DNA of 64,000 nt from an uncultured Candidatus Saccharibacteria bacterium (GTDB lineage Bacteria; Patescibacteriota; Doudnabacteria; UBA920): NCBI GenBank assembly GCA_964474825.1, contig CAYYWQ010000001.1:165609-229608 (forward strand), in the 5' to 3' direction. The notes beneath the pieces are model-generated. The model ran no database searches. It worked only from the letters and a program-made list of their open reading frames with translations, and was not told where the DNA came from. The translations under genes and the position numbers were made by a program. Positions 3,597 through 44,939 of the stretch are shown piece after piece. The stretch's first letter is position 1; the number at the start of each line of letters is the position of its first letter.

Positions 3597-3714
3597 TCTC
3601 TACTAAATACTAAAATAACTAAAAATACTAAAGCTATAATATTCCATATTACTATAATTTCTGGTTTCGTATTTAGTACATTTAGTCTACTTTAGTATTT
3701 AGTAGAAATAATTT
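3597..3714. repeat. Palindromic intergenic repeat, family A, coreless copy: ctactaaatactaaa...tttagtatttagtag inverted termini
   Basis: Termini are reverse complements. The same termini recur at 44891-44908, 50878-51012 and 58144-58272. Confidence 0.7.
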
Positions 3715-26864: not shown

Positions 26865-27398
26865 TTACTGCTGGGCGATGATCTTTCTGGACTCGCTCAT
26901 GTTTTTGCTGAGCTCAGGTGCGAGCTCAAAGCTTTTAGAGAGGGAGCTAATATGGCTTTCTAATGCTTTGCCCTCGTCTTCGAATTCTCGGAGCTTTTCG
27001 TAAAACAGAGGATCCTTACTTTTTGGTATGAGGTTAGCCCTCGCCTCAAGGATTTTTCTGTGGGAGTTCAGGAACTTGAGTTTCGTCTGATGGTAAGTCC
27101 CCAAGACATTCGCTAGTCTTATGTAGGCCTTCCTGACTTCACGCTGGGCGATTGTTCCTTCGTACCAATCGTCGATTTTTTTTGCCTGAGCTAGTTTTGC
27201 CTTTAGTATGTCCAAGGCGTAGTCGGAAAAGCCGGCGGCGACCTGGCAGTCTCTGGCAAACGTCTCCAGCCTGTCCTTCTCTACTTCTAGGGCGGCTTGC
27301 CAGTCTTTTTTTCTCTCGGCGGTTGCGGTGGTGCTGGCGCTCAGGAAGATCGCCAACAAAATAAGAGAGTGGATTAAATTTTTCATGGCTTTCCTCAA
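26865..27398 (-). CDS. Secreted hypothetical protein (signal peptide; helical)
   Basis: N-terminal LILLAIFLSASTTATA signal. Confidence 0.45.
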   Translation of the reverse strand: MRKAMKNLIHSLILLAIFLSASTTATAERKKDWQAALEVEKDRLETFARDCQVAAGFSDYALDILKAKLAQAKKIDDWYEGTIAQREVRKAYIRLANVLGTYHQTKLKFLNSHRKILEARANLIPKSKDPLFYEKLREFEDEGKALESHISSLSKSFELAPELSKNMSESRKIIAQQ

Positions 27399-27523
27399 AA
27401 GGAACTAGGCGCCTAAAAAGCCGCGCAAATCCCTTCAAAGAAAACCCTGTATTATACCCCCTAAAAAATATGCTTTAGTATATCAAAAAGCCCGGGAAAG
27501 TCCAGGCTTAGTTTTATAAAATA

Positions 27524-27974: not shown

Positions 27975-30900
27975 TTATGGAAGAGATATGTTGCTATTTT
28001 CATCAAATTCTTTTTCCTGCTCTACGCCAAAGAACGCATATTTTATTTTGCCCTTCTTAGAGATTCCTTCATCTGGGTCTCCTCCAATTCTATTTGTCAG
28101 CTGAATTGTAAGCGTACCGTTTACAATAGATTTATTTAGCTGTTCTGTAATATCAATAATTTTTTCAGAATGGGTGCCATAAGTTGCTTTTACTATCTTA
28201 AACTTGTCTTTAGCCCCAAGATTTTTCAACAATGTTTTGCCTGTTAGTCGCTCACTCGACCCCTCAGGATTTTGATAAAGCTCTAAACCATATTGTTCAA
28301 TTTCACTAATAAATGAAGTCTTTTTTTCGAACAAAAGTTTATGTGCAAATAAAATATTAACCAAACTTTCCTTTTGTGGTAATGGTGTCTTTTTTAGTAT
28401 TTCAAATAGCTTTCTAGGTAAACCTTCTTTCCTGCTCTTGGGGATGTTTTGAATAACATTCCCACTTTGAAGGTAGCCTGAAATTTTGTTTTTCACCTCT
28501 TGGGATTCGCCATCATTATCAAGAATTGCTAGCCATACATCTAATAACTTTTCCTTGTGCTCATCACTCAATAGATTATATGAAGGAATGAGAAAACTGT
28601 GAGTTAAAAATCGCTGATCTAAATCTGTAAAACTAGCCGACCATTCTAAAAGCTTATCAAATATTCCATCTAAGAAACCATCATTTAGTTGTGATCGAAT
28701 TAACTCTATCTTTTGTAAAGCGAAGCGAATATTAACAAAATCTTTGGACTCGATTATAATTTGTTTTAAGCCCTCCAAATACAAGGTCTTCTTTTTGCTT
28801 GCATCAATACCGTTCAAGCCTTCTAACAGGAGAGTTTTTTGACCTTCGTCAACACTTGGTTGCAAGACTCTTTCAACTATAGATCTTTTTAAATCAGTTA
28901 CAAATTCTACTTTTTCTTCAGCAAATTTTAATAACAAACTCTTTATATCTTGGAATTCGTTACTTGAAGAAATTTGTTGTTCATAGACTTTTTTAAAATC
29001 ATCTTTGGCTGTTTCTGAAGCCTGCGAGAGTTTATTTATAAGGTTAACAATATCAAGCTTTAGCTTTTGTGGTATTACTGGATTGTTAATATATAAAATA
29101 TAATGGGGGGCTACTACCTCATAATAATCTTTTGTTATTTTTTCTTCCTTAATTATATTAATATAAAAATTAAGTACCGCTTCCTTTCCAGGGTTCCATT
29201 CTGGAATTTTGGGATTTGTAATAAATCCATTTAAGTTATTTAATAATTGGGCAATTTGCTTTTTGCTTAAAAATGGTATTATCTGAGAATTAACTTGCAA
29301 AGTTTTAGTACTCAACTCATCCAATGAACTAGGGTCGTTAGTGATAGTATTTAGACCATAAATAAGTTGGTCTATAAAACCTTCGCTAATAAATGATTTG
29401 GTGACTGTTTTGTTGGCTAGCAATAGTAAAGAAGTGTCTAAAACAGAAACCTTAAGATTATTATCTTGATAATATCGATAAATTAAATCTGAGATTTTTG
29501 TTTTGATTTGGGAAGTAAGTATGTCAACATTTTTGGAATAGGTCTCAATGATCTTGTTAAGTACCACTTTAGGATCATCACTCTCCAAAACTTTTGAATG
29601 CTCATCAAGGATTAGATCGCGCTGAGTAAATTGAGTTTTTGTATTACCGTTCAAGACTTTAAAAAGACTTTCGGATTTATAAGAACCTGCTTTAGCAAGA
29701 TGTGGAGTTTTGGCCGCTGATTGTGTAAATGCGTCTGCCAGTTTAGCTTTATATCCATCTGGAATTAAATCAAATATGGATAGAACCATATTTAAAATAT
29801 TGAAAACAGAAGCAAATTTATTTTGTCTTTGCTCTTGATTCAAGAGCGAACTAATTTGCTGAACTATATTTTGTTTCTCCTGCTCATTCGACTTTTTAAT
29901 TGTACTTAAGACAGACTCTTCTCTACCACTAATCAAAGAAATTTTAAGTTCCGAGCTTACGCCTAATACCCCGGCATAACCCTCTCTTTTTAAATTTATG
30001 AATTGTTCAAGCTTTAAAGATTGATATGGCCTTGATGCTTGTAGAAAATCAGAAAGGTTCTGGTCTTCAAGTTGCTTTTTTATCTCCTTTATTTTAGGTC
30101 CGTCTTCTGTACCGTTTCTCAAGTAAGTATCTGCGACTTGAAGGGCATCGGAATCATCAAGAAGAACTTTAAAGAAATTTGGCCATTCTTCTTGTAAGAT
30201 AATTAATTTGGATAAAAATGTGAGGTTGTTAGTTACTAGGCCTGTATCAATGTTTCCGAGCTCCTCTTGAGCTAAGGCTAAAAGATAGGTCGTACTTAAA
30301 TTATTGTAAAACTGCTTTATCTTTCTAGGAGTATGAGAAAAAGCATTTAAAACTAAATTGGCAATATTATCTTTTTCCTCATCGTCCTTAAATGGAATTG
30401 CAATCTGACATGAAATCTTGCTAATATACTTTTCTAAATCTCCTTTGAGAAAAGGTGATAAGCGTACTGTAACTTGAAAGAACTTCTTTAAAAAATCTCT
30501 GCTCTGAAGATCTTTTTCATTAGCACCAAGGTCGTCAGTTATAAGACCTTTTTTTAAATGATTCAATAGTGCCCCTTCGTCTACAGGAACAATATAAAGG
30601 CATCCATCGATATTTAAAAAAGTTTTTATTGTGCCTAATAATTCAATTGCTATTTCATTTGTGCACCTATCAAGATTATCAATTACGATAACGATTTTTT
30701 TAAACTTTTTCTTTGCAGTACTAACATATCTTTTAAAGACTTCCTCAAATTGCTCATCAGAAAATAAAGGACTATTTTCTTCGACCCAGTCTTTGACTTT
30801 AATCAAATTTTTAAGACCACTAACACCTCTAGATAAAATTGTTGCTAAGGAACTTGGCACTAATACTAAAACAATTTTATAAAACCATTCAATATTATAG

Positions 30901-31406
30901 TTAAATTGCCACAAGAACGAGGCTGCTAAAATAATCAAATACCAAAAGATAAACTGTAAAACCAAATTTTTTACTTCTTCTTTATCCCAGTATAAGTTGT
31001 AAGACTGTTTTTTTGTTGTTACCGTCGTATAAAAGATTAGTTTTAAATTATCATCAATATCTAAATCTGCTTTCATTTTGGCAAGAAACTGACGATAAAA
31101 AGCATTCTTTTGGTATTTCCAAGCATCAAAATACACGAAGCCAATATCTGATGCAGATTCTTGTAGTCTCTTTCTAAGAAATTTATTAACCAAAGTTGTT
31201 TTTCCAACTCCCCATTTACCCAAAACCCCAACTACAAAAGGCGTCTTAGCCTCCTTTGTAATAGCTTCAAGAGTATCAACATAGTGCTCATACCCAAATT
31301 CATCGAGATCCGAAGGTTCATCAATTAATAGAAGAGATTGGCCTTTTGCAAGAAGGTCTTTAAATTCTTTATCTTTCTTGTTATTCCACCAGCTTGTGAT
31401 GTCCAT
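27975..31406 (-). CDS. KAP-family P-loop NTPase (1143 aa) with TM helices inserted in the NTPase domain
   Basis: Walker A GVLGKWGVGKTT; TM pair LVLQFIFWYLIILAASFLW / IVLVLVPSSLATIL; KAP signature IVIVIDNLDRC. Confidence 0.8.
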   Translation of the reverse strand: MDITSWWNNKKDKEFKDLLAKGQSLLLIDEPSDLDEFGYEHYVDTLEAITKEAKTPFVVGVLGKWGVGKTTLVNKFLRKRLQESASDIGFVYFDAWKYQKNAFYRQFLAKMKADLDIDDNLKLIFYTTVTTKKQSYNLYWDKEEVKNLVLQFIFWYLIILAASFLWQFNYNIEWFYKIVLVLVPSSLATILSRGVSGLKNLIKVKDWVEENSPLFSDEQFEEVFKRYVSTAKKKFKKIVIVIDNLDRCTNEIAIELLGTIKTFLNIDGCLYIVPVDEGALLNHLKKGLITDDLGANEKDLQSRDFLKKFFQVTVRLSPFLKGDLEKYISKISCQIAIPFKDDEEKDNIANLVLNAFSHTPRKIKQFYNNLSTTYLLALAQEELGNIDTGLVTNNLTFLSKLIILQEEWPNFFKVLLDDSDALQVADTYLRNGTEDGPKIKEIKKQLEDQNLSDFLQASRPYQSLKLEQFINLKREGYAGVLGVSSELKISLISGREESVLSTIKKSNEQEKQNIVQQISSLLNQEQRQNKFASVFNILNMVLSIFDLIPDGYKAKLADAFTQSAAKTPHLAKAGSYKSESLFKVLNGNTKTQFTQRDLILDEHSKVLESDDPKVVLNKIIETYSKNVDILTSQIKTKISDLIYRYYQDNNLKVSVLDTSLLLLANKTVTKSFISEGFIDQLIYGLNTITNDPSSLDELSTKTLQVNSQIIPFLSKKQIAQLLNNLNGFITNPKIPEWNPGKEAVLNFYINIIKEEKITKDYYEVVAPHYILYINNPVIPQKLKLDIVNLINKLSQASETAKDDFKKVYEQQISSSNEFQDIKSLLLKFAEEKVEFVTDLKRSIVERVLQPSVDEGQKTLLLEGLNGIDASKKKTLYLEGLKQIIIESKDFVNIRFALQKIELIRSQLNDGFLDGIFDKLLEWSASFTDLDQRFLTHSFLIPSYNLLSDEHKEKLLDVWLAILDNDGESQEVKNKISGYLQSGNVIQNIPKSRKEGLPRKLFEILKKTPLPQKESLVNILFAHKLLFEKKTSFISEIEQYGLELYQNPEGSSERLTGKTLLKNLGAKDKFKIVKATYGTHSEKIIDITEQLNKSIVNGTLTIQLTNRIGGDPDEGISKKGKIKYAFFGVEQEKEFDENSNISLP

Positions 31407-31427
31407 AATTATAATTTATACAAAAGT

Positions 31428-31460
31428 TAGTCCATAGGTATTTTACTCCCAATTAAGCCA
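31428..31460 (-). promoter_or_regulatory. Conserved island promoter, copy 1 (TTGTAA-17-GGAGTAAAAT), upstream of the KAP NTPase gene
   Basis: Same motif at 34916-34947 and 38111-38143. Confidence 0.55.
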
Positions 31461-31866
31461 TTTTACAAAGACCCTTGATATTAAATAATCAAAGCCTATT
31501 TAAGAGTCTGACCACTAACCTGCGAAGATAATATCTCGCAACGGCTGACAGAAAATTTTATCAATTTTAGACTAATCTTGCGGTTTTATTTGTTTGGCTG
31601 ACAATGCAAGCTTTGCATATGCCACATCATCGTGAAAATCGTATTTAGCATGTTTATTTTTTGCAAACAAACGAGTGAGGATATCCATCCTTAGCAATTC
31701 ATTAGCTTCTCTTTTTGTCATACCTGAAACGTGAGCAGGCAAATATTCTAAAGGATAGTGTATGCCGCAGGCTTTGGAAAACAAAAAGGGGACATGACCC
31801 ATTTAAAAACGCCGCATGGCGTTTTTTTGTGTGCACCTAGGTTGCGCTTATGGGAGGAGTAGGGGA

Positions 31867-32151
31867 CTAGTTTATAAATTCTTTTAGCATTTGTTTTACG
31901 GTGGTTTTTCCTTTTGTTGTTTTAAAATAAGCTTCTCTTCTTAGGGCGTCTTGTTTGTTGGGAAAAGCTTCGTAAAAAATTAGTTCCAACGGCCGGCGGT
32001 TTTTGGTCGAAACATTTTTACCCATATTATGGTCATAAACTCTTTGTTTTAAGTCATCGGAATAGCCAATATAAAACAGCCCGTCTTTGAGGCTGCGGAG
32101 GATGTAGACATAATGAAATTTTATAGACATAAGTTTATGATTAATCTTCAT
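31867..32151 (-). CDS. GIY-YIG nuclease-domain protein (small, UPF0213/YhbQ-like)
   Basis: YVYILRSLKDGLFYIGYSDDLKQRVYDHN...RRPLELIFYE. Confidence 0.75.
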   Translation of the reverse strand: MKINHKLMSIKFHYVYILRSLKDGLFYIGYSDDLKQRVYDHNMGKNVSTKNRRPLELIFYEAFPNKQDALRREAYFKTTKGKTTVKQMLKEFIN

Positions 32152-32159
32152 TAATCATA

Positions 32160-32370
32160 TTGTATCAAAACTATTCGGCCCTGTACTGCTCACGGTTTAT
32201 GGCCGCGCCACGACCCTAAATTGAAAATTTAGGGCTTGACCCGAGCGAACAAGGTACAGCCCTGAACCAGTCGCCATCAAATGGCTCCGGTACAGGGCAC
32301 TCACCACTCTTTAACCTGACGGTTCGCGAGTGGTTCGTGGTGGAGCACATCGAGAGGCTGGCAAAACGTT
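32160..32370. ncRNA. GC-rich structured non-coding region (candidate ncRNA of unknown class)
   Basis: About 57% GC versus about 40% nearby. ccctgtac/gtacaggg long-range complement. Local hairpin ccctaaatt-gaaa-atttaggg. No ORF. Confidence 0.3.
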
Positions 32371-32570
32371 ATTTGGCTTAGTTAAAGAGATTTATTTTTT
32401 GATGGTTACTACAAAAGCTATTGCTTAGATTTTTATTAGAACCATTTTACTTACTATGTAAAGGTTAAACAGGTTTTCTAAATGAGAAAAATACAAATAA
32501 ATTTTTGTTAGACAACAAGCCCTAAAAAAGATATAATAATAAGGTAAAGTAGTCAAAATCCACCGAAATT

Positions 32571-33992
32571 ATGACAGAAAAGCAAACAAAAGAAATAGAA
32601 AGCAATATACTGAAACTAGATAATGTGTTAAAGAAAAAATATACTTCCAAGCTGGAAGTTAATTTTGATTTGAAGAGAACCCTAGTTAGTTTTCAGGCTA
32701 ATAAAATAGAATCTGGGTACCGTTGGTATAAATTTAAAGAAGGGTTCTCGTCATCTCTAGTTAAGTATTGTCTTAAAAAAGCAGGTTTAAAGAAAGGTAA
32801 AATACTTGATCCCTTTGCAGGAAGTGGTACTTCATTGTTTGTTGGTGTTGAGGAAGGACTGGATGCCACAGGAATCGAGTTATTGCCCATAGGTCGTGAA
32901 ATTATAAAAGCCAGAGAATTCGCATTACAGACAGATAAAGAAAAACTAAGGTCCATAATAGCAGATTGGATAAAGAATAAGCCTTGGAAAGACCCCAAGA
33001 TAAAAGCCAAGCACTTAAAGTATTTAAATATTACTAAGGATGCTTTTCCCGATGAGACCGAGGTTGAGCTAGGTAGATATCTAACATATTGTGAAAAATT
33101 AAAGGACAAAGACCTGTCTCAGTTTTTTAGATTTGCTGCATTATGTATTTTAGAAGAAATTAGTTATACACGAAAAGATGGTCAATATTTAAGATGGGAT
33201 CACAGGTCACGTAGAACTAATGGCAGTAAAATTTTCAACAAAGGATTAATAAAAACCTTTGACCAGGCTATTAGTTCAAAGTTAGACCAAATTTGTATAG
33301 ATTTAAATAAAGAAGAAATTGATTTATTTTCAAAGGTTGGAAATAAAGAAATCGGAAGCATAGAATTGCTTGAAGGATCTTGTTTAGATGTTCTCCCTAA
33401 GCTTAAAGCTAAGAGCTATGACTTTGTTATGACTTCTCCACCTTATTGCAATAGATACGATTACACTCGTACCTATGCTTTAGAATTAGCCTTACTTGAG
33501 GTAGAAGAACAGGAATTGAAAGATTTAAGACAGACAATGCTTTCCTGTACAGTTGAAAATAGAGAAAAGAGTGATTTGAAAAATAAATTTTCTAGAGAGG
33601 TTTTTGAAGAAGCTTCAAAGGCATTTGATTCTCAAAAGCTCTTAAAATCTATACTAGATTATCTAGAGATATTAAAAAAAGAAAAAAAGCTCAATAACAC
33701 TGGGATCGTCAGAATGATCCGTAACTATTTTTATGAAACAAGCTTAGTAATATTTGAATGCTCCAGAATTCTGAAATCTGGTGGATACTTTTTCATGGTC
33801 AATGATAATGTTAGGTATGCCAGTATAAACATTCCTGTTGATCTTATTTCTTCAGAATTTGCCAAAGCAGCCGGATTCAATGTAGAAAAAATATGGGTCT
33901 TACCAATAGGAAAAGGCAATAGTAGCCAACAAATGGGACTACATGGAAGAGAGGAATTGAGAAAATGTGTCTACGTCTGGCGCAAAATCTAA
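32571..33992 (+). CDS. DNA methyltransferase (N4-cytosine or N6-adenine; alpha-class motif order I then IV)
   Basis: SAM motif I ILDPFAGSGTS; catalytic motif IV TSPPY. Confidence 0.8.
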   Translation: MTEKQTKEIESNILKLDNVLKKKYTSKLEVNFDLKRTLVSFQANKIESGYRWYKFKEGFSSSLVKYCLKKAGLKKGKILDPFAGSGTSLFVGVEEGLDATGIELLPIGREIIKAREFALQTDKEKLRSIIADWIKNKPWKDPKIKAKHLKYLNITKDAFPDETEVELGRYLTYCEKLKDKDLSQFFRFAALCILEEISYTRKDGQYLRWDHRSRRTNGSKIFNKGLIKTFDQAISSKLDQICIDLNKEEIDLFSKVGNKEIGSIELLEGSCLDVLPKLKAKSYDFVMTSPPYCNRYDYTRTYALELALLEVEEQELKDLRQTMLSCTVENREKSDLKNKFSREVFEEASKAFDSQKLLKSILDYLEILKKEKKLNNTGIVRMIRNYFYETSLVIFECSRILKSGGYFFMVNDNVRYASINIPVDLISSEFAKAAGFNVEKIWVLPIGKGNSSQQMGLHGREELRKCVYVWRKI

Positions 33993-34888
33993 AGAGAAAT
34001 TAGCCAGGATATTAAGCCCTCAAACTGAGTATCAGAATTTAGATTAGCTGCACAAGCTAGTCTTTTTTCTTGTAGCTGGTTGTAAATCTCTACTGCCATA
34101 GCATTCTCAATTGCAGCACCTACGAAAAATAATTTAGGCTTATTTTTATTATCTTCAAAGACTTTTCTAATTCTGTCTAAAGCACTATTGGCCGTTTTCC
34201 AATGTTCATCTGCTCCAGCAGGGTCAATTCCTCCCTTTAATTCACCACACGCAAGATAACGATTCTTATCATTAAAAATGTCTTTAGTGATTTTAGTTAA
34301 GCCTGTTGTGTCGAGTAGAATTGCATCAATATTTTTACCAATTAGAGCAGGCTTGAAATCAAAAACCAAAAATCTTTTTGGCCAAGTAAGGCTTTGAACT
34401 TTCCCAGAATCACTTGCTTTAGCTTCGAGTTCAATCTTCTTTGCTTTCAATTTTTTTACTATAGCACCAGCTAATTTGTTACCTGCTAATGCCCCAGTCT
34501 TATTCCTTGAAATACCTCCTAATGTATCGCCCTTGGTAAGTAAGTATCTATACACAAGCTCTTGAGTAAAATTGTCTCCGGCAGTAATTTGATATTTATT
34601 TAAAGCCTCTTTTAAGGCTGCCTTTAAGTCTTCCTCAGAAAGGTGATTAATGGCTTTATCAGAAAACCCAACCGCAGCAATTAACTCCAGTCTATGATGC
34701 GAAAAAAACTCAGGTTTGAAAATATCCTCAATAGTTTTTACTTTTGATAATCCTTCTTTAAATGTCTCTGCTTTTACTAAGTAAGGATGAGCACTGCTTT
34801 CTTTAAAAAGTGCTTGCGTTAAAAACCCCTTCCTTACATTGTACGGGGAAGTAACCAAATCCTCTGGCTTATCAATTGAGTCAGTCAT
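33989..34888 (-). CDS. Putative Type II restriction endonuclease, convergent and overlapping stop codons with the methyltransferase
   Basis: Tail-to-tail 4-bp overlap with the MTase, typical R-M arrangement; no recognisable family. Confidence 0.45.
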   Translation of the reverse strand: MTDSIDKPEDLVTSPYNVRKGFLTQALFKESSAHPYLVKAETFKEGLSKVKTIEDIFKPEFFSHHRLELIAAVGFSDKAINHLSEEDLKAALKEALNKYQITAGDNFTQELVYRYLLTKGDTLGGISRNKTGALAGNKLAGAIVKKLKAKKIELEAKASDSGKVQSLTWPKRFLVFDFKPALIGKNIDAILLDTTGLTKITKDIFNDKNRYLACGELKGGIDPAGADEHWKTANSALDRIRKVFEDNKNKPKLFFVGAAIENAMAVEIYNQLQEKRLACAANLNSDTQFEGLISWLISL

Positions 34889-34915
34889 TCTATATAATTA
34901 AGCTAAATAATTATC

Positions 34916-34947
34916 TGTATTTTACTCCTTAGCAACGGACTTGGCAA
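34916..34947 (-). promoter_or_regulatory. Conserved island promoter, copy 2 (TTGCCA-17-GGAGTAAAAT), upstream of the restriction gene
   Basis: Motif match. Confidence 0.55.
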
Positions 34948-35021
34948 GAAAAAGGCTTATAAATATAAGCAAACAGTTTGCCAAATCAATACCCTCAAGC
35001 TGACTAAGTTTCTCAAACTCG

Positions 35022-36899
35022 CTATTTCCATTTATCAATTAGGGTCATTGTTTCGTTCCTTGGTGCATATTTCTTTTCTATTTCCCCAATATCAACTACA
35101 ACAGGGACTTGTGCCAGTAAGCCTGCAAGTATACAAGTTCCCGTGGGTAAAATTGGTATGTAGTCAAAAGACACCTTATCCAAAAAAGAAATAGTCTTTT
35201 CGACAGCCTTTATGTCTTCTTGGTTAATTAGTCTGTGTAGGAAGTAATTATGAAGTTGAGAAATTATTGTTTGAGAAATATCTGAAGGTCTCTGGCTAGC
35301 AATAGTTAGGAATACCCCAAATTTTCTCCCTTCTTTTATTATTTCTTCAAAAGTTTCTAATCGATAATCTTTCCATTGTTCACTTTCTCTTTCTGAATCG
35401 TCGGATAAGATATTATGAGCCTCGTCGATAATAATGTTTAGGAAAGTGTTATCGTGTTTTTTCTTTTTTTCATTATATAAGCTCTTGCAAAGAAGCAATG
35501 GAAGTATTTTTCTAATATGGATATCTTCAACGTCTTTAAATGATACAATGGTTATATTTGGTTTTATATTGTTTGAATCTTGTGTTTGAACATCTTTAAC
35601 TTCAATAACCTTTTCTAATTCAGGGTATCTGCTATCCATTCTTTTAATTAAAGGAGATAAGTGCTCACGGTTTGCATGACCTTTAATAATATCGTCATAA
35701 TATTTTATAACAACCTTTAATCTAATAAGATTTATACTTGAATGGTTAAATTCTAGTTCGTCAATAATTCCTTTTAAAGGTTGAAGAATGTCCGTATTAA
35801 TACCTTCTTGACCATATTGATCAGTTGCCCCAATGTTCATATAAGAGCCTGTGGTTCCATTGAAGCCTAATTTTTCACTAAGAATATTTTTTGCATCTTC
35901 AAGCTTTTCGAAATTATTTACGCTAGTATATAAATCAGAAAATAATTCTATAAAAATTTTTGATCCCAAATTTTTATCTTTTTTATCAATCGTTTCTTTT
36001 ACCATCGAATACAATTTCGTTCTTAAGTTAGCATTAAAATTATCTCCTTCAAAGATTCTTTTCAAAGCACGGCTTGTCATAACGCTTCTCAAAAAGGGAG
36101 TTTGTGTTTTTTCAGTTGCCTCCAAATATATAGCCCAAAATATGGGATCGTTTAAAGTCTCTTCCGATACAGGAAATTTTTTACTTTCTTGACCTAACCT
36201 CGTTGAAAGTTTATAAATGTTTTTATATTTTTCTTCTACTATCCCATTTGGGTGATCGTATTCCCCATTAAAATCAACTAAGAAAAATTGAGCCTTTTTC
36301 TTAAAGCCATTGTTGTCTTTATATTTTTCAAAAAGTTCGTGGTAAATTTTTGCTAAGGTATAGGATTTACCACTGCCAGTATTTCCGAATATACCGATAT
36401 GACTTGCAAAAAGACTATTGATACCCACTCCTATACGCTGTCCTTTTTCAAGCGACAGCACACCAATATATATAGGTTCGTCAGTTCCTTTTATGAAATT
36501 ATGGACTTGGTCAAATTCATCTTTTTCCAACAAATAGCATTCATTATCAATCAAGGGGAGCTCTTTTATACCTCTTTCAAAATTTTGCCCCTCAAAAAAT
36601 CCTAACAAGCTAATGCTTAGAGTCCTGCTAATTTTATCTCCTTCATTTTTATAACTCTTTTCTGCAAACTGTTTATCTTCAGTGACAAACTCACCGTCAA
36701 CTTTTCCAATAATTTTTATAAAACCTTTTGCTATTTTAACGTACCCTCCGACTGATATGTTTTTTAAAAGCTCCCCTCTATATAAAAGATTTGAGGAGTT
36801 TTTACTTTTATCAACCTTTACTTTTATCACCCTGCCTTCAACAGAGATGACCTTTCCTATTTTAAAAATAGAATCTTTTAATAGAGAGTCGTCGTTCAT
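35022..36899 (-). CDS. HerA-like (DUF87) ATPase, partner of the SIR2 protein
   Basis: Walker A GNTGSGKS; Walker B IIIDEAHNIL; 625 aa. Confidence 0.75.
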   Translation of the reverse strand: MNDDSLLKDSIFKIGKVISVEGRVIKVKVDKSKNSSNLLYRGELLKNISVGGYVKIAKGFIKIIGKVDGEFVTEDKQFAEKSYKNEGDKISRTLSISLLGFFEGQNFERGIKELPLIDNECYLLEKDEFDQVHNFIKGTDEPIYIGVLSLEKGQRIGVGINSLFASHIGIFGNTGSGKSYTLAKIYHELFEKYKDNNGFKKKAQFFLVDFNGEYDHPNGIVEEKYKNIYKLSTRLGQESKKFPVSEETLNDPIFWAIYLEATEKTQTPFLRSVMTSRALKRIFEGDNFNANLRTKLYSMVKETIDKKDKNLGSKIFIELFSDLYTSVNNFEKLEDAKNILSEKLGFNGTTGSYMNIGATDQYGQEGINTDILQPLKGIIDELEFNHSSINLIRLKVVIKYYDDIIKGHANREHLSPLIKRMDSRYPELEKVIEVKDVQTQDSNNIKPNITIVSFKDVEDIHIRKILPLLLCKSLYNEKKKKHDNTFLNIIIDEAHNILSDDSERESEQWKDYRLETFEEIIKEGRKFGVFLTIASQRPSDISQTIISQLHNYFLHRLINQEDIKAVEKTISFLDKVSFDYIPILPTGTCILAGLLAQVPVVVDIGEIEKKYAPRNETMTLIDKWK

Positions 36900-36911
36900 G
36901 AGGATTTTACA

Positions 36912-38072
36912 TTAGTCCGAAATCTTTTTAACAATTTTGCTAAATATTTCTTTGTCAATATTTTGTAAATTCAATTCAAACATATCTTCTTTCTTCCCTT
37001 GAAGCCTAGCTATTAGAGAGCCGGCTTTTTGGGGAGGAGTTAAAATATGAATATTATTGTTTTTGATTTTATCAAAATCAATAATTTTTCTAAGCGTCTT
37101 TTCTGTGTTTGTAGAATGAGCGAGAATAAAAATTCTCAATGTTGGGTTAGAATCCGCAGCCCTTAACGTAAGCGCTCTTATATGCTGGTCTCTAAAGGAA
37201 AAACCCATAACAAATAAAACGGTGTTTTCTTTTTCTAACTCGTTTGAGTAAGACCTTAGCAATCCATAATAGGTTTCATTAAGAACTGTATCCTTTAATT
37301 TTGCTTCTGTAGGGTTAACAATGGCAAAATCTTTGTAGCTTGCCATAAATTGTTTAATTTCGTCAATACATTTTAGGCCATTAGATTTTTTTATTAAATC
37401 TTGTTCCTTATCTTTTTTGTCGATAGTAATAATTTTATCTTTTGGAATTTTGATCTCATTTAATTTTTTAATAAGTTCTAAATTCGATGAAAATTTTATT
37501 TCCTTATTTTCGATTTGCCAAGTTAAAGATCCGTGCATTTTTAACACATTAAATACTGGTATCTCCGAGGTGTTGTCGTAATAAAGACTTTTTTTAAAAT
37601 AAGATTTTTTAAAATTACCTAGATTAAAAGCAGGTTTAAATCTGCCACAGAAACCATCATTAAATTCAAGGCCACTTTCCTCTAAACTTTTTTCTAAAAA
37701 TAAATCAATATTGGTTGTAAACAAATTTGCCTGTTTGCAAAAAATATTTTTTCTTTTTAATAACAAAGTGTTTATAGATGTTAAAAAGTTTCTATAATTT
37801 TGTAAGACTTCATTTGGTTCATTTTCATTTTGTAGAATCCCGACATTTTTTGAAATTACTCCGTCAAAGTAGTGTTTGTAAAGCGATGACGTGATAATCT
37901 CTTTTTGTTCGGCTTCAACTATTTGGTTTTTATTCTCTTCAAAAATCCCAAGTAAATTTTCTATATTTTCTAGGCAATCTAAATACGGTCTCGACATCCC
38001 AGCCCCAATTAAAAAGTTTATGTTTGCACTTTCTATTACACTTTGTATTTCGTCTAGGTTATGTGTATCCAT
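36912..38072 (-). CDS. SIR2-like (SIR2_2 family) NADase-domain protein of a SIR2-HerA defence pair
   Basis: NFLIGAGMSRP, FTTNIDLFLE (TTNYD-like) and KMHGSL motifs. Confidence 0.7.
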   Translation of the reverse strand: MDTHNLDEIQSVIESANINFLIGAGMSRPYLDCLENIENLLGIFEENKNQIVEAEQKEIITSSLYKHYFDGVISKNVGILQNENEPNEVLQNYRNFLTSINTLLLKRKNIFCKQANLFTTNIDLFLEKSLEESGLEFNDGFCGRFKPAFNLGNFKKSYFKKSLYYDNTSEIPVFNVLKMHGSLTWQIENKEIKFSSNLELIKKLNEIKIPKDKIITIDKKDKEQDLIKKSNGLKCIDEIKQFMASYKDFAIVNPTEAKLKDTVLNETYYGLLRSYSNELEKENTVLFVMGFSFRDQHIRALTLRAADSNPTLRIFILAHSTNTEKTLRKIIDFDKIKNNNIHILTPPQKAGSLIARLQGKKEDMFELNLQNIDKEIFSKIVKKISD

Positions 38073-38110
38073 AAATAGGCAGATTAACAGATCAAAAAGT
38101 AACTATGCAT

Positions 38111-38143
38111 GTATTTTACTCCTATCTAAGCGGTTTTACAAAG
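38111..38143 (-). promoter_or_regulatory. Conserved island promoter, copy 3 (TTGTAA-17-GGAGTAAAAT), upstream of SIR2-HerA
   Basis: Motif match. Confidence 0.55.
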
Positions 38144-38487
38144 GGGGTGGATTCCGATATAATTTAAATAACAACTGAATAAAGTAGCCTAAACCACTAG
38201 TAATATTGGCATGGCGAAAAAAACCACAGAAATGTAAAGACGGTCACCTGTCTTGTCTTAACCATTTCTGTGGTCACTATCCGAAAGGGTAGCGGGGCAA
38301 GCGGGTGGCCTTTTTTGATTCCCGTAGAAAGGTTAAAAATATGTGCTTTAGTCCGTTCGATAATACTTGGCATTTTGTATACTTGATTGTTTGGACTGTT
38401 ATTTGGACAATCATTGGGTACGGACTTCGTAAGTCAGAAAAAGGTGGCAGCTTTTAGCTGTCCTTTTTAATTGCTAAGTTATTTTAT

Positions 38488-39348: not shown

Positions 39349-39521
39349 AGCTAGGTAAACAGTTCCTATTTCGGCCAAAACTGACAAATTTGGCTTGTTT
39401 TAGCTACCCAGCTAGATAACTATAACCTGGCTATTTGCGTGCTATAGCGAGCCGTTTTACTGCCGAGTTTGTTAAAATGGTGTAAAATAAAAGAAGATTT
39501 GAGCATTAATTCAAATACACC

Positions 39522-41688: not shown

Positions 41689-43158
41689 ATGGCCAACAGC
41701 AATATAATAAAGCCTAATAATAAATTTCTTGCCTATGTCAGGGTTAGCAGTAAAGACCAGTCCCGTGGCACCAGCCTTGATGAGCAAAAAGCCCGTATCA
41801 TGCAATATGCCCATGACAAGGGGTTTGAAATTATAAAATTTTACGGTGAGGTTGAATCGGCTTCAAAAGCAGGCAGAGAGATTTTTCAAGATATGACAGA
41901 GCAGTTAAAAAAAGAAAAATTGGCTGGCATTATATTTCACAAAGTAGACAGGTCATCTCGTAACCCAAAAGATTCAGCCGAACTCTACCAGCTTATGATG
42001 GAAGGGTATCAGTTGCACTTTGCAGACGGTGGATACTCAACCAATGACCCTACAGGCCGAACTATGATTTATATTATGTGGGGCATAGCCAGTAGCTACA
42101 GTGAAAATTTGGCAGCAGAAATTAATAAGGGAATTTTAGGAAGATTAAAACAAGGGCGTTATCCTGGACCTGTTCCTTTGGGTTACAAAAAAGCAGAGGA
42201 CTGTAAAGCCGTACTGGATCCACAGAAAGCCCCACTGGTCAAAAGAATGTTTCAGGAATATGCCACAGGCAAGTATTCCATAGAAACTATGAAAAAAATA
42301 ACAAAAGAGTTTGGCCTGACAAATAGAAATGGTTGCTACTTGGGTATTAATCCGATTCACGGAATGTTAAGGGAAACTTTTTACTATGGCCTTATTACTC
42401 ACAAGCGAGGTACGTTTCAGGGAGAGCACCCACCTTTAATTACCAAAGCTTTATTTGATAAGGTTCAGTTTATGCTACACGACAGGGGCTTTAAAATTGA
42501 GCACCACCACAAATATATATTTCAAGGGCTGATGAAGTGTTATGTATGTGGCAAAATACTTAAAGCTATGACTGCAAAAAGGAATCATCGTTACTACCTG
42601 TGCAGGAATAGGTCTTGTGGAATTAAAACTATTTCGGAAAAAGTAGTTGAGGATCAATTTGTTGAGAAGCTAAAAGAATTGGAATTCAGCCCCGAAGAAG
42701 CCGAAGGGTTTAAAAAAGCCGTCCTAAGTTTTAGAAGGACAGCAGAACGGTCAAAGGACGAACAAATTAAAGCCTTGGACCTGGAGCTATCAGCGATTGA
42801 TTCAAGGCTAAGTGAATTATTGCAGAAGTATATTGATAAAAGGATTGACGATGAAACCTACAGCAAGACCAGAGAAGCCTTGTTAAACAGGCAAATAGAG
42901 CACAAAGAAGCCCGTACAGCACTGGAAACAACAGATGAAAAGGCCTTTGACGAAATAACCGAGTTGGTCAAACTGCTAATAAACCCAAGCATAGCCTATA
43001 GAAAAAGCACTGATCCAATAAATCAGCGCCGTCTCGTAATGTCTATGGTGGCAAACCTTGAGCTAAACGGTAAAGTACTTATAGTTAAGTGGAAAAAACA
43101 CTTTGATTTGATCGCTAGACGACCAAAACTAAATTATGGTGGAGATGCCGGGAGTTAA
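41689..43158 (+). mobile_element. Large serine recombinase (phage-type integrase) gene
   Basis: Catalytic region YVRVSSKDQ...SLDEQ...IIFHKVDRSSRN; recombinase domain; Zn-ribbon CYVCGK...CRNRSC; C-terminal coiled coil. Confidence 0.85.
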
Positions 43159-43715
43159 ACCCGGGTCCAAAACTTCTCAACTTTTCCATTGTTCACAAGA
43201 TTAGTCAGCTCATAAACTTTAACGACAGGAGCTGACCAGATATCGCCAAAGGTGATTTACTTAGCTTAGGCTAACCTGCGCAAATCAACCAGGTTAACTG
43301 CAGCCCCAATAAACTTGCTGGACCGTGGTCGGGGCGGACCGCGGGGCAAGGCATTAACTTAAAATTAAGCTAATACAGGTTGTAACTGGGCGTTTTGAAA
43401 CGCGGCTACTACCTTGTTCCAAGCTGTTGTAGCATTTGGATTTGATTACGGCATTTTTACGAGTGAGTAATCATTCTCGTCTTGCATATAGAAAAATGTT
43501 AAAGTCCTGTCAAAATCCGTCATCCCCAGTATGACAACCTTGCAATTGTTCGCTGTCTTACAGACTAAACCATTACAAAGTATTTTCCTAAGGGTGCCCA
43601 CAAATAGAGCGTTTTGCATAACCTACAGCTCACAAAGGAGGTTTGCAAGGTTGCTCTACTGGGCATCCCCACAGGAAGACTATTTTACCACAAAAATGCG
43701 TTGTGGACAAGTGCT

Positions 43716-44897: not shown

Positions 44898-44939
44898 TCT
44901 CTACTAAATACTAAATCTTAAATCATTAATCTTAAATCT

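Follow-up and report, generated by a model that had tools for sequence, protein, structure and literature searches.

A shared promoter-like core precedes three defence units on a predicted integrative element of a Patescibacteria genome

The morons of temperate phages, in the description of Hendrix and colleagues, are said to be self-contained units of promoter, gene and terminator that are added to a mobile element. Islands inserted at the transfer-messenger RNA (tmRNA) gene of Dehalococcoides reportedly combine a serine recombinase with tandem accretion, and we know of no shared cargo promoter reported for them. Genomic islands at this gene (ssrA) in Dehalococcoides are among the subjects treated in PMC3146451. 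Here we analyse a stretch of 64,000 nucleotides (nt) of contig CAYYWQ010000001.1 (assembly GCA_964474825.1, positions 165,609 to 229,608; hereafter the window, at its full length) from an uncultured bacterium of the Patescibacteriota, in which three defence units of a predicted integrative element, i.e. a KAP-family NTPase, a BsoBI-like restriction endonuclease and a SIR2-HerA operon, are each preceded by the same promoter-like core.

These units are like morons in that each has its own predicted promoter (and SIR2-HerA, at least, its own predicted terminator), and in that they lie in a low-GC cargo arm beside the core of an element whose sister elements carry other cargo at the same place. 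They are unlike morons, which normally bring unrelated promoters, in that all three share one promoter core; moreover, no phage structural genes were found on the island. With integron arrays and their Pc promoter the locus has in common a promoterless cassette (SIR2-HerA, as found in the related contig L054) that would be expressed after capture on a platform. In this case, however, a promoter copy stands before every unit where an integron has a single Pc, the island has neither an attC-like site nor a tyrosine integrase (its sole recombinase is a large serine recombinase), and the breakpoints relative to L054 and to a second contig with related cargo, L059, are not at a fixed recombination site.

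What we observed directly is the anatomy of the sites, their non-random occurrence, their position at unit boundaries and their distribution in relatives. The exact 12-mer GGAGTAAAATAC has three copies in the window, all on the minus strand (31438-31449, 34917-34928 and 38111-38122), and the longer pattern TTG-N16-GGAGTAAAATAC was found three times against 0.00 expected from 100 dinucleotide-preserving shuffles of the window. Matches to GGAGTAAAATAC with at most two mismatches are unremarkable (15 vs 8.3 expected in the window); the exactness and the placement of the copies are the notable part, not the loose matches. All three sites are intergenic, on the same strand as the next gene and pointing at it, with a distance from the last T of the -10 element to the ATG of 33 nt (KAP), 30 nt (endonuclease) and 40 nt (SIR2). 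The spacer is 17 nt long in each case, inside the 16-18 nt range of sigma-70 promoters. The -10 element TAAAAT, likewise common to the three, matches TATAAT at 5 of 6 positions, with A at position 2 and T at position 6, while the -35 element matches TTGACA at 4 of 6 positions as TTGTAA (KAP and SIR2 sites) and at 5 of 6 as TTGCCA (endonuclease site). A consensus promoter scan reports all of them as TTGnnn-17-TAAAAT, with 9-10 of the 12 hexamer positions matching. The first-pass annotation of this DNA had described the same architecture (TTG, 17-nt spacer ending in GGAG, TAAAAT, AC) before a KAP NTPase, a restriction gene and SIR2-HerA: the three exact matches confirm the architecture, and the Pfam and PADLOC matches (Table 1) bear out the gene identities. 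Of the intervals it gave, the second was right, the first (31428-31460) was about 8-10 nt off and the third ran 2 nt past the -35 element.

We also searched for the related pattern GGNGTAAAATA, which gave 4 matches in the window against 0.39 expected, all of them intergenic, within the island and 29-39 nt before an open reading frame (ORF) on the same strand. Three are the sites above, and the fourth is GGTGTAAAATAA at 39479. A further sequence, GGGGTATAATAC, stands directly after a strong terminator (27509-27488) and is possibly a fourth relative of the motif.

The best explanation that we can offer, which we hold as a whole to be fairly probable, is that the three sites are promoters of the housekeeping-sigma (sigma-70) type, one for each separate transcription unit, and that their identical GGAGTAAAATAC core comes by descent from one promoter lineage circulating in this element family; promoter activity, transcription start points and common descent are what we infer. 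Precisely, the RNA polymerase holoenzyme would bind TTGnnA and TAAAAT and start about 7 nt downstream, producing transcripts with short (about 24-34 nt), Shine-Dalgarno-poor leaders that would resemble those of the host's own genes, and each predicted promoter would drive one self-contained defence unit (KAP NTPase, restriction endonuclease or SIR2-HerA). The sites are like sigma-70/sigma-A promoters in the TTGnnn -35 element, the 17-nt spacer, the TAAAAT with A-11 and T-7 and the closeness to the gene, and unlike them in that the island copies are identical over 12 nt, which is beyond the needs of promoter function.

To see where else this combination occurs, the pattern TTGNNAA-N5-TT-N5-GGAGTAAAATAC (31 nt) was scanned against 185,579 species genomes (GTDB, one genome per species), JGI metagenomes and viral contigs. 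The species genomes gave 22 unrelated loci with one site each, in Clostridia, Planctomycetia, Bacteroidota, Patescibacteria and others, and in 13 of them the free -35 positions were AC (hence TTGACA), against about 1/16 expected. In the JGI metagenomes there were 20 unrelated loci, 7 with TTGACA, all single-site except L038 (two copies inside a local repeat), and in the viral contigs 0 matches. As the 12-mer stands behind TTGACA in unrelated phyla, it is compatible with an ordinary sigma-70 factor and a special sigma factor is unnecessary. No second island with multiple copies was found in these viral, JGI metagenome and GTDB collections, which do not include the window's own genome.

The lack of a ribosome-binding motif at the island units is normal for this genome, since host genes in the window also have short AT-rich leaders in which the Shine-Dalgarno sequence is mostly absent. 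Most gene starts in the window (e.g. 334, 3716, 17445, 52719 and 59013) are of this kind, and many have TATAAT or TAAAAT 13-40 nt before the start codon, which suggests that the mRNAs of this genome may be short-leadered or nearly leaderless. We considered GGAG as the Shine-Dalgarno sequence of a leader peptide and rejected it: at two of the sites an ATG lies 8 and 10 nt further on (mini-ORFs of 8 and 2 codons), and the third has none.

As regards the likeness of the three sites, we built a context profile from 73 TA[AT]AAT hexamers that lie no more than 120 nt before a gene in 11 loci of the lineage, the island excluded. In this profile the -10 context favours T-17, T-15 (0.55), G-14 (0.34), G-13 and A at -6 to -4, i.e. 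the classical TGn extended -10, an example being the tmRNA promoter with GTGGTAAAAT, the form that host promoters carry. The island sites read G-16, G-15, A-14, G-13, A-6 and C-5, and the joint frequency of this context (GGAG, A-10, A-6, C-5), calculated as the product of the lineage background frequencies, is about 1e-4 per promoter. Since the GGAG and AC flanks are unlike the usual context of the lineage, convergence on a general optimum fails to account for the identity, and the flanks point to shared descent or shared constraint. The possible extended -10 put forward in the first-pass annotation is not of the classical TGn kind, as the sites read G-15, A-14, G-13, a further difference from sigma-70 promoters.

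In pairwise comparisons, the KAP and SIR2 sites have a 33-nt block in common, with a score that was reached in 0 of 2000 shuffles. Over a 49-nt repeat identified by a repeat search there are 12 mismatches (counted by eye), 0 of them in the -35 block (10 nt) or the -10 block (12 nt; P ~2e-4), and such mismatch-free blocks are the pattern expected if selection acts on both. The endonuclease and SIR2 sites have TTG, the 12-mer and some of the leader in common (1 of 2000 shuffles). Under common descent, selection would keep the -35 and -10 blocks while the spacers drift; one copy would have arrived with the KAP gene, one at the core boundary would drive a SIR2-HerA cassette that is promoterless elsewhere, and one precedes the endonuclease. 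The KAP upstream region may be a decayed copy of the whole core boundary, with marginal support: the score beyond the -35 element was reached in 46 of 3000 shuffles and that of the leader in 280 of 3000, and the comparison of this region with the spacer between the core GIY-YIG and 168-amino-acid genes was significant in 1 of 8 comparisons.

The relatives of the cargo genes show which sequences travel with which unit. In L054-L056 the SIR2 protein is 81% identical to that of the window, and the cassette belongs to a different element (Prim-Pol/serine-recombinase), where it follows another gene at 4 nt. Its homology to the window begins at the SIR2 ATG and ends right after the terminator hairpin; hence the promoter is not part of the SIR2-HerA cassette. 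The endonuclease -35 element begins 7 nt after this HerA terminator hairpin, where the L054 homology stops. The KAP protein of L059 belongs to the same 90%-identity cluster as that of the window, with a DNA identity of 84-95% per 100 columns over most of the gene, and L059 keeps about 150 nt of upstream homology, in which TTGTAA, GGAGTAAAAT and 16 of the 17 spacer positions are preserved. The order there is LOOT RNA, GIY-YIG-like gene, terminator, promoter and KAP, with the U-tract of the terminator running into the -35 element; the hairpin upstream of the KAP promoter folds strongly in L059 (z = -3.75) and weakly in the window. Besides L059, the KAP homologues found were only about 43% identical, and the one checked, L057, has an unrelated upstream region beside a tRNA gene. 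The scan of the window gave no terminator directly after KAP or the endonuclease, and no close relatives (90%) of the restriction enzyme, methylase or HerA were found, so that the boundaries of the restriction-modification cassette are not mappable. The methyltransferase has its own, differing promoter-like site (TAGACA-17-TATAAT, 32509-32537).

A sister motif of the 12-mer, GGTGTAAAATAA, precedes a 168-amino-acid core gene of the element in the window and lies 20-37 nt before the equivalent gene in L048, L049, L052 and L053, where its surroundings vary and no -35 element is present; GGTGTAAAAT is the -10 region of the LOOT promoter in L049. The common form GG(A/T)GTAAAAT is seen at the core-gene site (window, L048, L049, L052, L053), the L049 LOOT promoter and the L059 KAP promoter; the cargo promoters of L048 and L052 do not have it, nor do L060 and L061, which are more distant. 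It is plausible, and partly supported, that GG(A/T)GTAAAAT is a promoter signature of this element lineage. The first-pass view of a promoter signal belonging to mobile elements thus stands in part: sigma-70 anatomy, orientation, position and the related GGTGTAAAATAA in four other elements agree with it, while the cargo of L048 and the 81% SIR2-HerA relative do not have the 12-mer.

Several observations weigh against sigma-70 promoters of common descent. Consensus-like promoter matches are frequent in the AT-rich island (80 found vs 54 expected), and position therefore weighs more than score. The endonuclease site has little in common with the others beyond TTG and the 12-mer, and its pairwise likeness to the KAP site is weak (51 of 2000 shuffles, P ~0.025). 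In L059 the KAP site has GT and not AC after the -10 element, which means that no long-term constraint acts on AC. The SIR2-HerA relative of L054, which is promoterless inside another operon, lacks the 12-mer, and so does the cargo of L048, whose outward promoter is TTGTTA-17-CATAAT-AC (9 of 12 positions in common with the 12-mer). Finally, an exact GGAGTAAAATAC in L053 (3122-3133, plus strand) lies over the stop codon of the last cargo ORF, with no TTG at -35 spacing and a terminator following; its chance expectation, estimated from composition, is about 0.02 over the loci scanned, and it may be a remnant or a chance match.

The conserved blocks could also be an operator together with the promoter, a reading which is compatible with the promoters and not an alternative to them. 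In this case a DNA-binding protein of the element or the host would read GG(A/T)GTAAAATA(C/A), and the core gene would be switched on or off together with the three defence units; we regard this as a tentative proposal of low probability. It would account for the identity beyond the hexamers at G-16, G-15, A-14, G-13 and C-5, unlike the lineage context, and for the core-gene motif conserved in five elements despite variable surroundings and no -35 element, which fits activator dependence or a factor-specific site. The core also encodes two small CxxC...CxxC zinc-ribbon proteins of 154 and 168 amino acids, and the overlap of the SIR2-HerA -35 element with that of the divergent LOOT promoter is an arrangement suited to joint control. 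However, apart from GTA...TAC, inspection of the three sites showed neither dyad nor direct-repeat symmetry, the element has no gene recognisable as a repressor or sigma factor, the KAP orthologue of L059 departs at AC, the identical 12-mer serves ordinary TTGACA promoters in unrelated phyla, and the methylase has another promoter without the motif. The three units may be co-regulated or have a common regulator, as the first-pass annotation proposed; a common promoter core does not by itself show either. Complementarity between LOOT RNA and the 12-mer was also sought by eye, with no match.

A bolder form of this idea, which we consider speculative and rather unlikely, makes GG(A/T)GTAAAAT the plug-in promoter of a LOOT-RNA/serine-recombinase element family that lives in Patescibacteria and has so far not been described. 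Captured defence cassettes that lack a promoter would receive copies of it from the element, and a factor encoded on the element would recognise these copies and couple defence expression to the divergent LOOT promoter.

It is very improbable that the motif is a cassette junction, i.e. a recombination or homing target (for GIY-YIG nucleases or a recombinase, for example) used for swapping cargo and not a transcription signal. Its three copies do lie at boundaries between unrelated cassettes, GIY-YIG genes adjoin the KAP unit in the window and in L059, and the exact copy of L053 is at a cargo/core boundary without a -35 element. But the homology between the window and L054 ends just upstream of the -35 element and resumes at the SIR2 ATG, not at the 12-mer, and that with L059 continues about 150 nt past the promoter; as these breakpoints are off the motif, a junction role is unlikely. 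Moreover, a spacing to TTG that is always 17 nt, an orientation that never changes and a start codon 30-40 nt away are properties of promoters, and the att sites of a serine recombinase are expected at the element ends, not inside. Least credible of all is chance, or the independent convergence of three AT-rich promoters, which is favoured by how common TTG...TAAAAT is in AT-rich DNA and by the weak endonuclease-KAP pair, and opposed by the zero expectation of the full pattern, the rarity of the GGAG, A-10, A-6, C-5 combination in the lineage profile and the KAP-SIR2 score that no shuffle reached.

The coordinates of all the features considered are collected in Table 1.

Table 1. Features of the island in the window, and copies of LOOT RNA in related contigs (positions in the respective contig)
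Feature	Position	Strand	Description
KAP-family P-loop NTPase	27975..31406	-	1143 amino acids; defence candidate; Pfam KAP_NTPase 1.1e-34; PADLOC PDC-S20, QatA, PifA
Type II DNA methyltransferase	32571..33992	+	Convergent with endonuclease
BsoBI-like type II restriction endonuclease	33989..34888	-	Pfam Endonuc-BsobI 8.4e-80; PADLOC REase_II
SIR2-HerA two-gene defence operon	35022..38072	-	SIR2_2 36912-38072, then HerA 35022-36899
Hairpin GCTTATATTTATAAGC then CTTTTTC	34955..34970	-	Terminator-like end of SIR2-HerA unit; conserved in L054
Promoter-like site, KAP NTPase	31438..31468	-	TTGTAA 31468-31463, 17-nt spacer ending GGAG, TAAAAT 31445-31440, AC
Promoter-like site, BsoBI-like endonuclease	34917..34947	-	TTGCCA 34947-34942, 17-nt spacer, TAAAAT 34924-34919, AC
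Promoter-like site, SIR2-HerA	38111..38141	-	TTGTAA 38141-38136, 17-nt spacer, TAAAAT 38118-38113, AC
GGGGTATAATAC	27449-27460	-	10/12 positions in common with motif; 50 nt before ORF 26865-27398; near presumed left island edge
LOOT promoter-like site TTTACA-17-TATAAT	38135-38163	+	Divergent from SIR2-HerA site
LOOT RNA	38186-38310	+	Rfam RF03000, 67 bits; start of core module
Core promoter-like motif GGTGTAAAATAA	39479..39490	+	Ends 31 nt before 168-amino-acid core gene; no TTG at -35 spacing
Large serine recombinase	41689..43158	+	3' end overlaps tmRNA gene
tmRNA gene	43137..43527	-	Island integration site
LOOT RNA, L048	6452-6576		
LOOT RNA, L049	4709-4828, 18853-18970		
LOOT RNA, L052	7061-7178		
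LOOT RNA, L053	3297-3423		
LOOT RNA, L054	8373-8501		
LOOT RNA, L059	1344-1469		
LOOT RNA, L060	4453-4578		
LOOT RNA, L061	790-914		

The island is predicted to be an integrative element of about 15 kb inserted at the 3' end of the tmRNA gene, with the defence units on its cargo arm. The cargo lies in a low-GC block (0.31-0.36 vs 0.42-0.46 in the flanks) that ends at the tmRNA gene, and between cargo and recombinase there is a core module made up of LOOT RNA, a fragment of a DnaD/O-like replication initiator and small ORFs, among them one for a GIY-YIG-like protein. The named relatives of the island proteins are from Daviesbacteria, Minisyncoccia and Parcubacteria/Patescibacteria and suggest a Patescibacteria host. 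For the left end of the island we sought a repeat of the tmRNA 3' end on the other side and did not find it, and synteny was of no help either.

The relatives of the recombinase form a graded series, of which the contigs of seven were fetched (L048, L049, L051, L052, L053, L060 and L061). The recombinase abuts the tmRNA gene in L048, L051, L052, L060 and L061, and LOOT RNA is present in L048, L049, L052, L053, L060 and L061, as well as in L054 and L059, which were reached via cargo proteins. L055 and L056 are the same element as L054 and were left out of the serine recombinase scan. On the whole, LOOT RNA was found in the window and in ten other distinct contigs, all with genes of the same element type, each copy heading a run of small ORFs; eight of these LOOT contigs have a large serine recombinase, and L059 shows core-type genes only. 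A GIY-YIG-like small ORF follows LOOT RNA directly in L049 and after about 200-700 nt in L059, the window and L048, and LOOT RNA leads operons containing defence genes in L054 and L059. We know of no reported function of LOOT RNA. The closest sister is L048 (recombinase 85%), which has the same core and chromosomal neighbours and other cargo (an SMC-like gene); its homology to the window starts at TTTTACAAAG, i.e. the SIR2 -35 element read on the other strand, and this boundary is common to L048 and L053. Protein-anchored scans of viral contigs with the recombinase and the 168-amino-acid core protein gave no relatives.

At the integration site, the 3' ends of the recombinase and of the tmRNA gene overlap by about 20-34 nt in the window (43137-43158) and in every tmRNA-linked relative (L048, L051, L052, L060 and L061), and hence the element appears to supply the tmRNA 3' end. 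Partial or split extra recombinase genes lie directly upstream of the full-length one in L048 (1060-2624), L051 (9050-9784), L060 (8377-9141) and L061 (3739-4401), and L048 has a second Prim-Pol element next door, which suggests that elements may have arrived repeatedly, in tandem, at the tmRNA site. The family is like the Dehalococcoides tmRNA islands in its large serine recombinase beside the tmRNA 3' end and in these signs of accretion (the second element of L048 and the partial recombinase genes of L051, L060 and L061). It is unlike them in the host lineage, in its cargo (defence genes here, dehalogenases there) and in carrying LOOT RNA and the GIY-YIG-like small gene.

Three other structures were noted in the window. 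A GC-rich stretch of about 220 nt (32160-32380, minus strand) inside the low-GC island immediately precedes a canonical GIY-YIG ORF of the same strand (31867-32151); its minus-strand fold has z = -3.78, with 0 of 200 shuffles folding as well, and a relaxed Rfam search of 31400-32600 gave no match for it up to E = 1. The corresponding position of L059, before the GIY-YIG-like gene, is taken by a LOOT RNA. A 24-nt inverted repeat (83% complementary) pairs 43522-43545, at the 5' end of the tmRNA gene, with 43643-43666, about 100 nt upstream; it falls between the mature 5' end and the promoter predicted for the tmRNA (43710-43682), and is possibly a structure of the precursor. Finally, the window has a family of repeats whose core, TCTACTAAATAC, continues as TCTACTAAATACTAAA in 6 of 7 copies. 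Inverted pairs with a spacing of about 100 nt directly follow gene ends at 3600/3695, 50884/50997 and 58147/58259, and a single copy is at 44901; the family looks like a host intergenic repeat or a bidirectional terminator element.

As to its meaning, we see in the locus a neat example of a mobile element re-using a promoter, with no novel type of signal involved; the family of LOOT-RNA elements may deserve more attention than these promoters. For uncultured Patescibacteria we know of no mapped promoters, and the sites, if they are what we propose, would provide a handle for predicting transcription units in these organisms and candidate promoters for expression there. If the sites are active and of common origin, they would illustrate how newly captured defence genes come to be expressed from a small integrative element in a reduced genome, namely by re-use of one promoter module and not through what each cassette brings.

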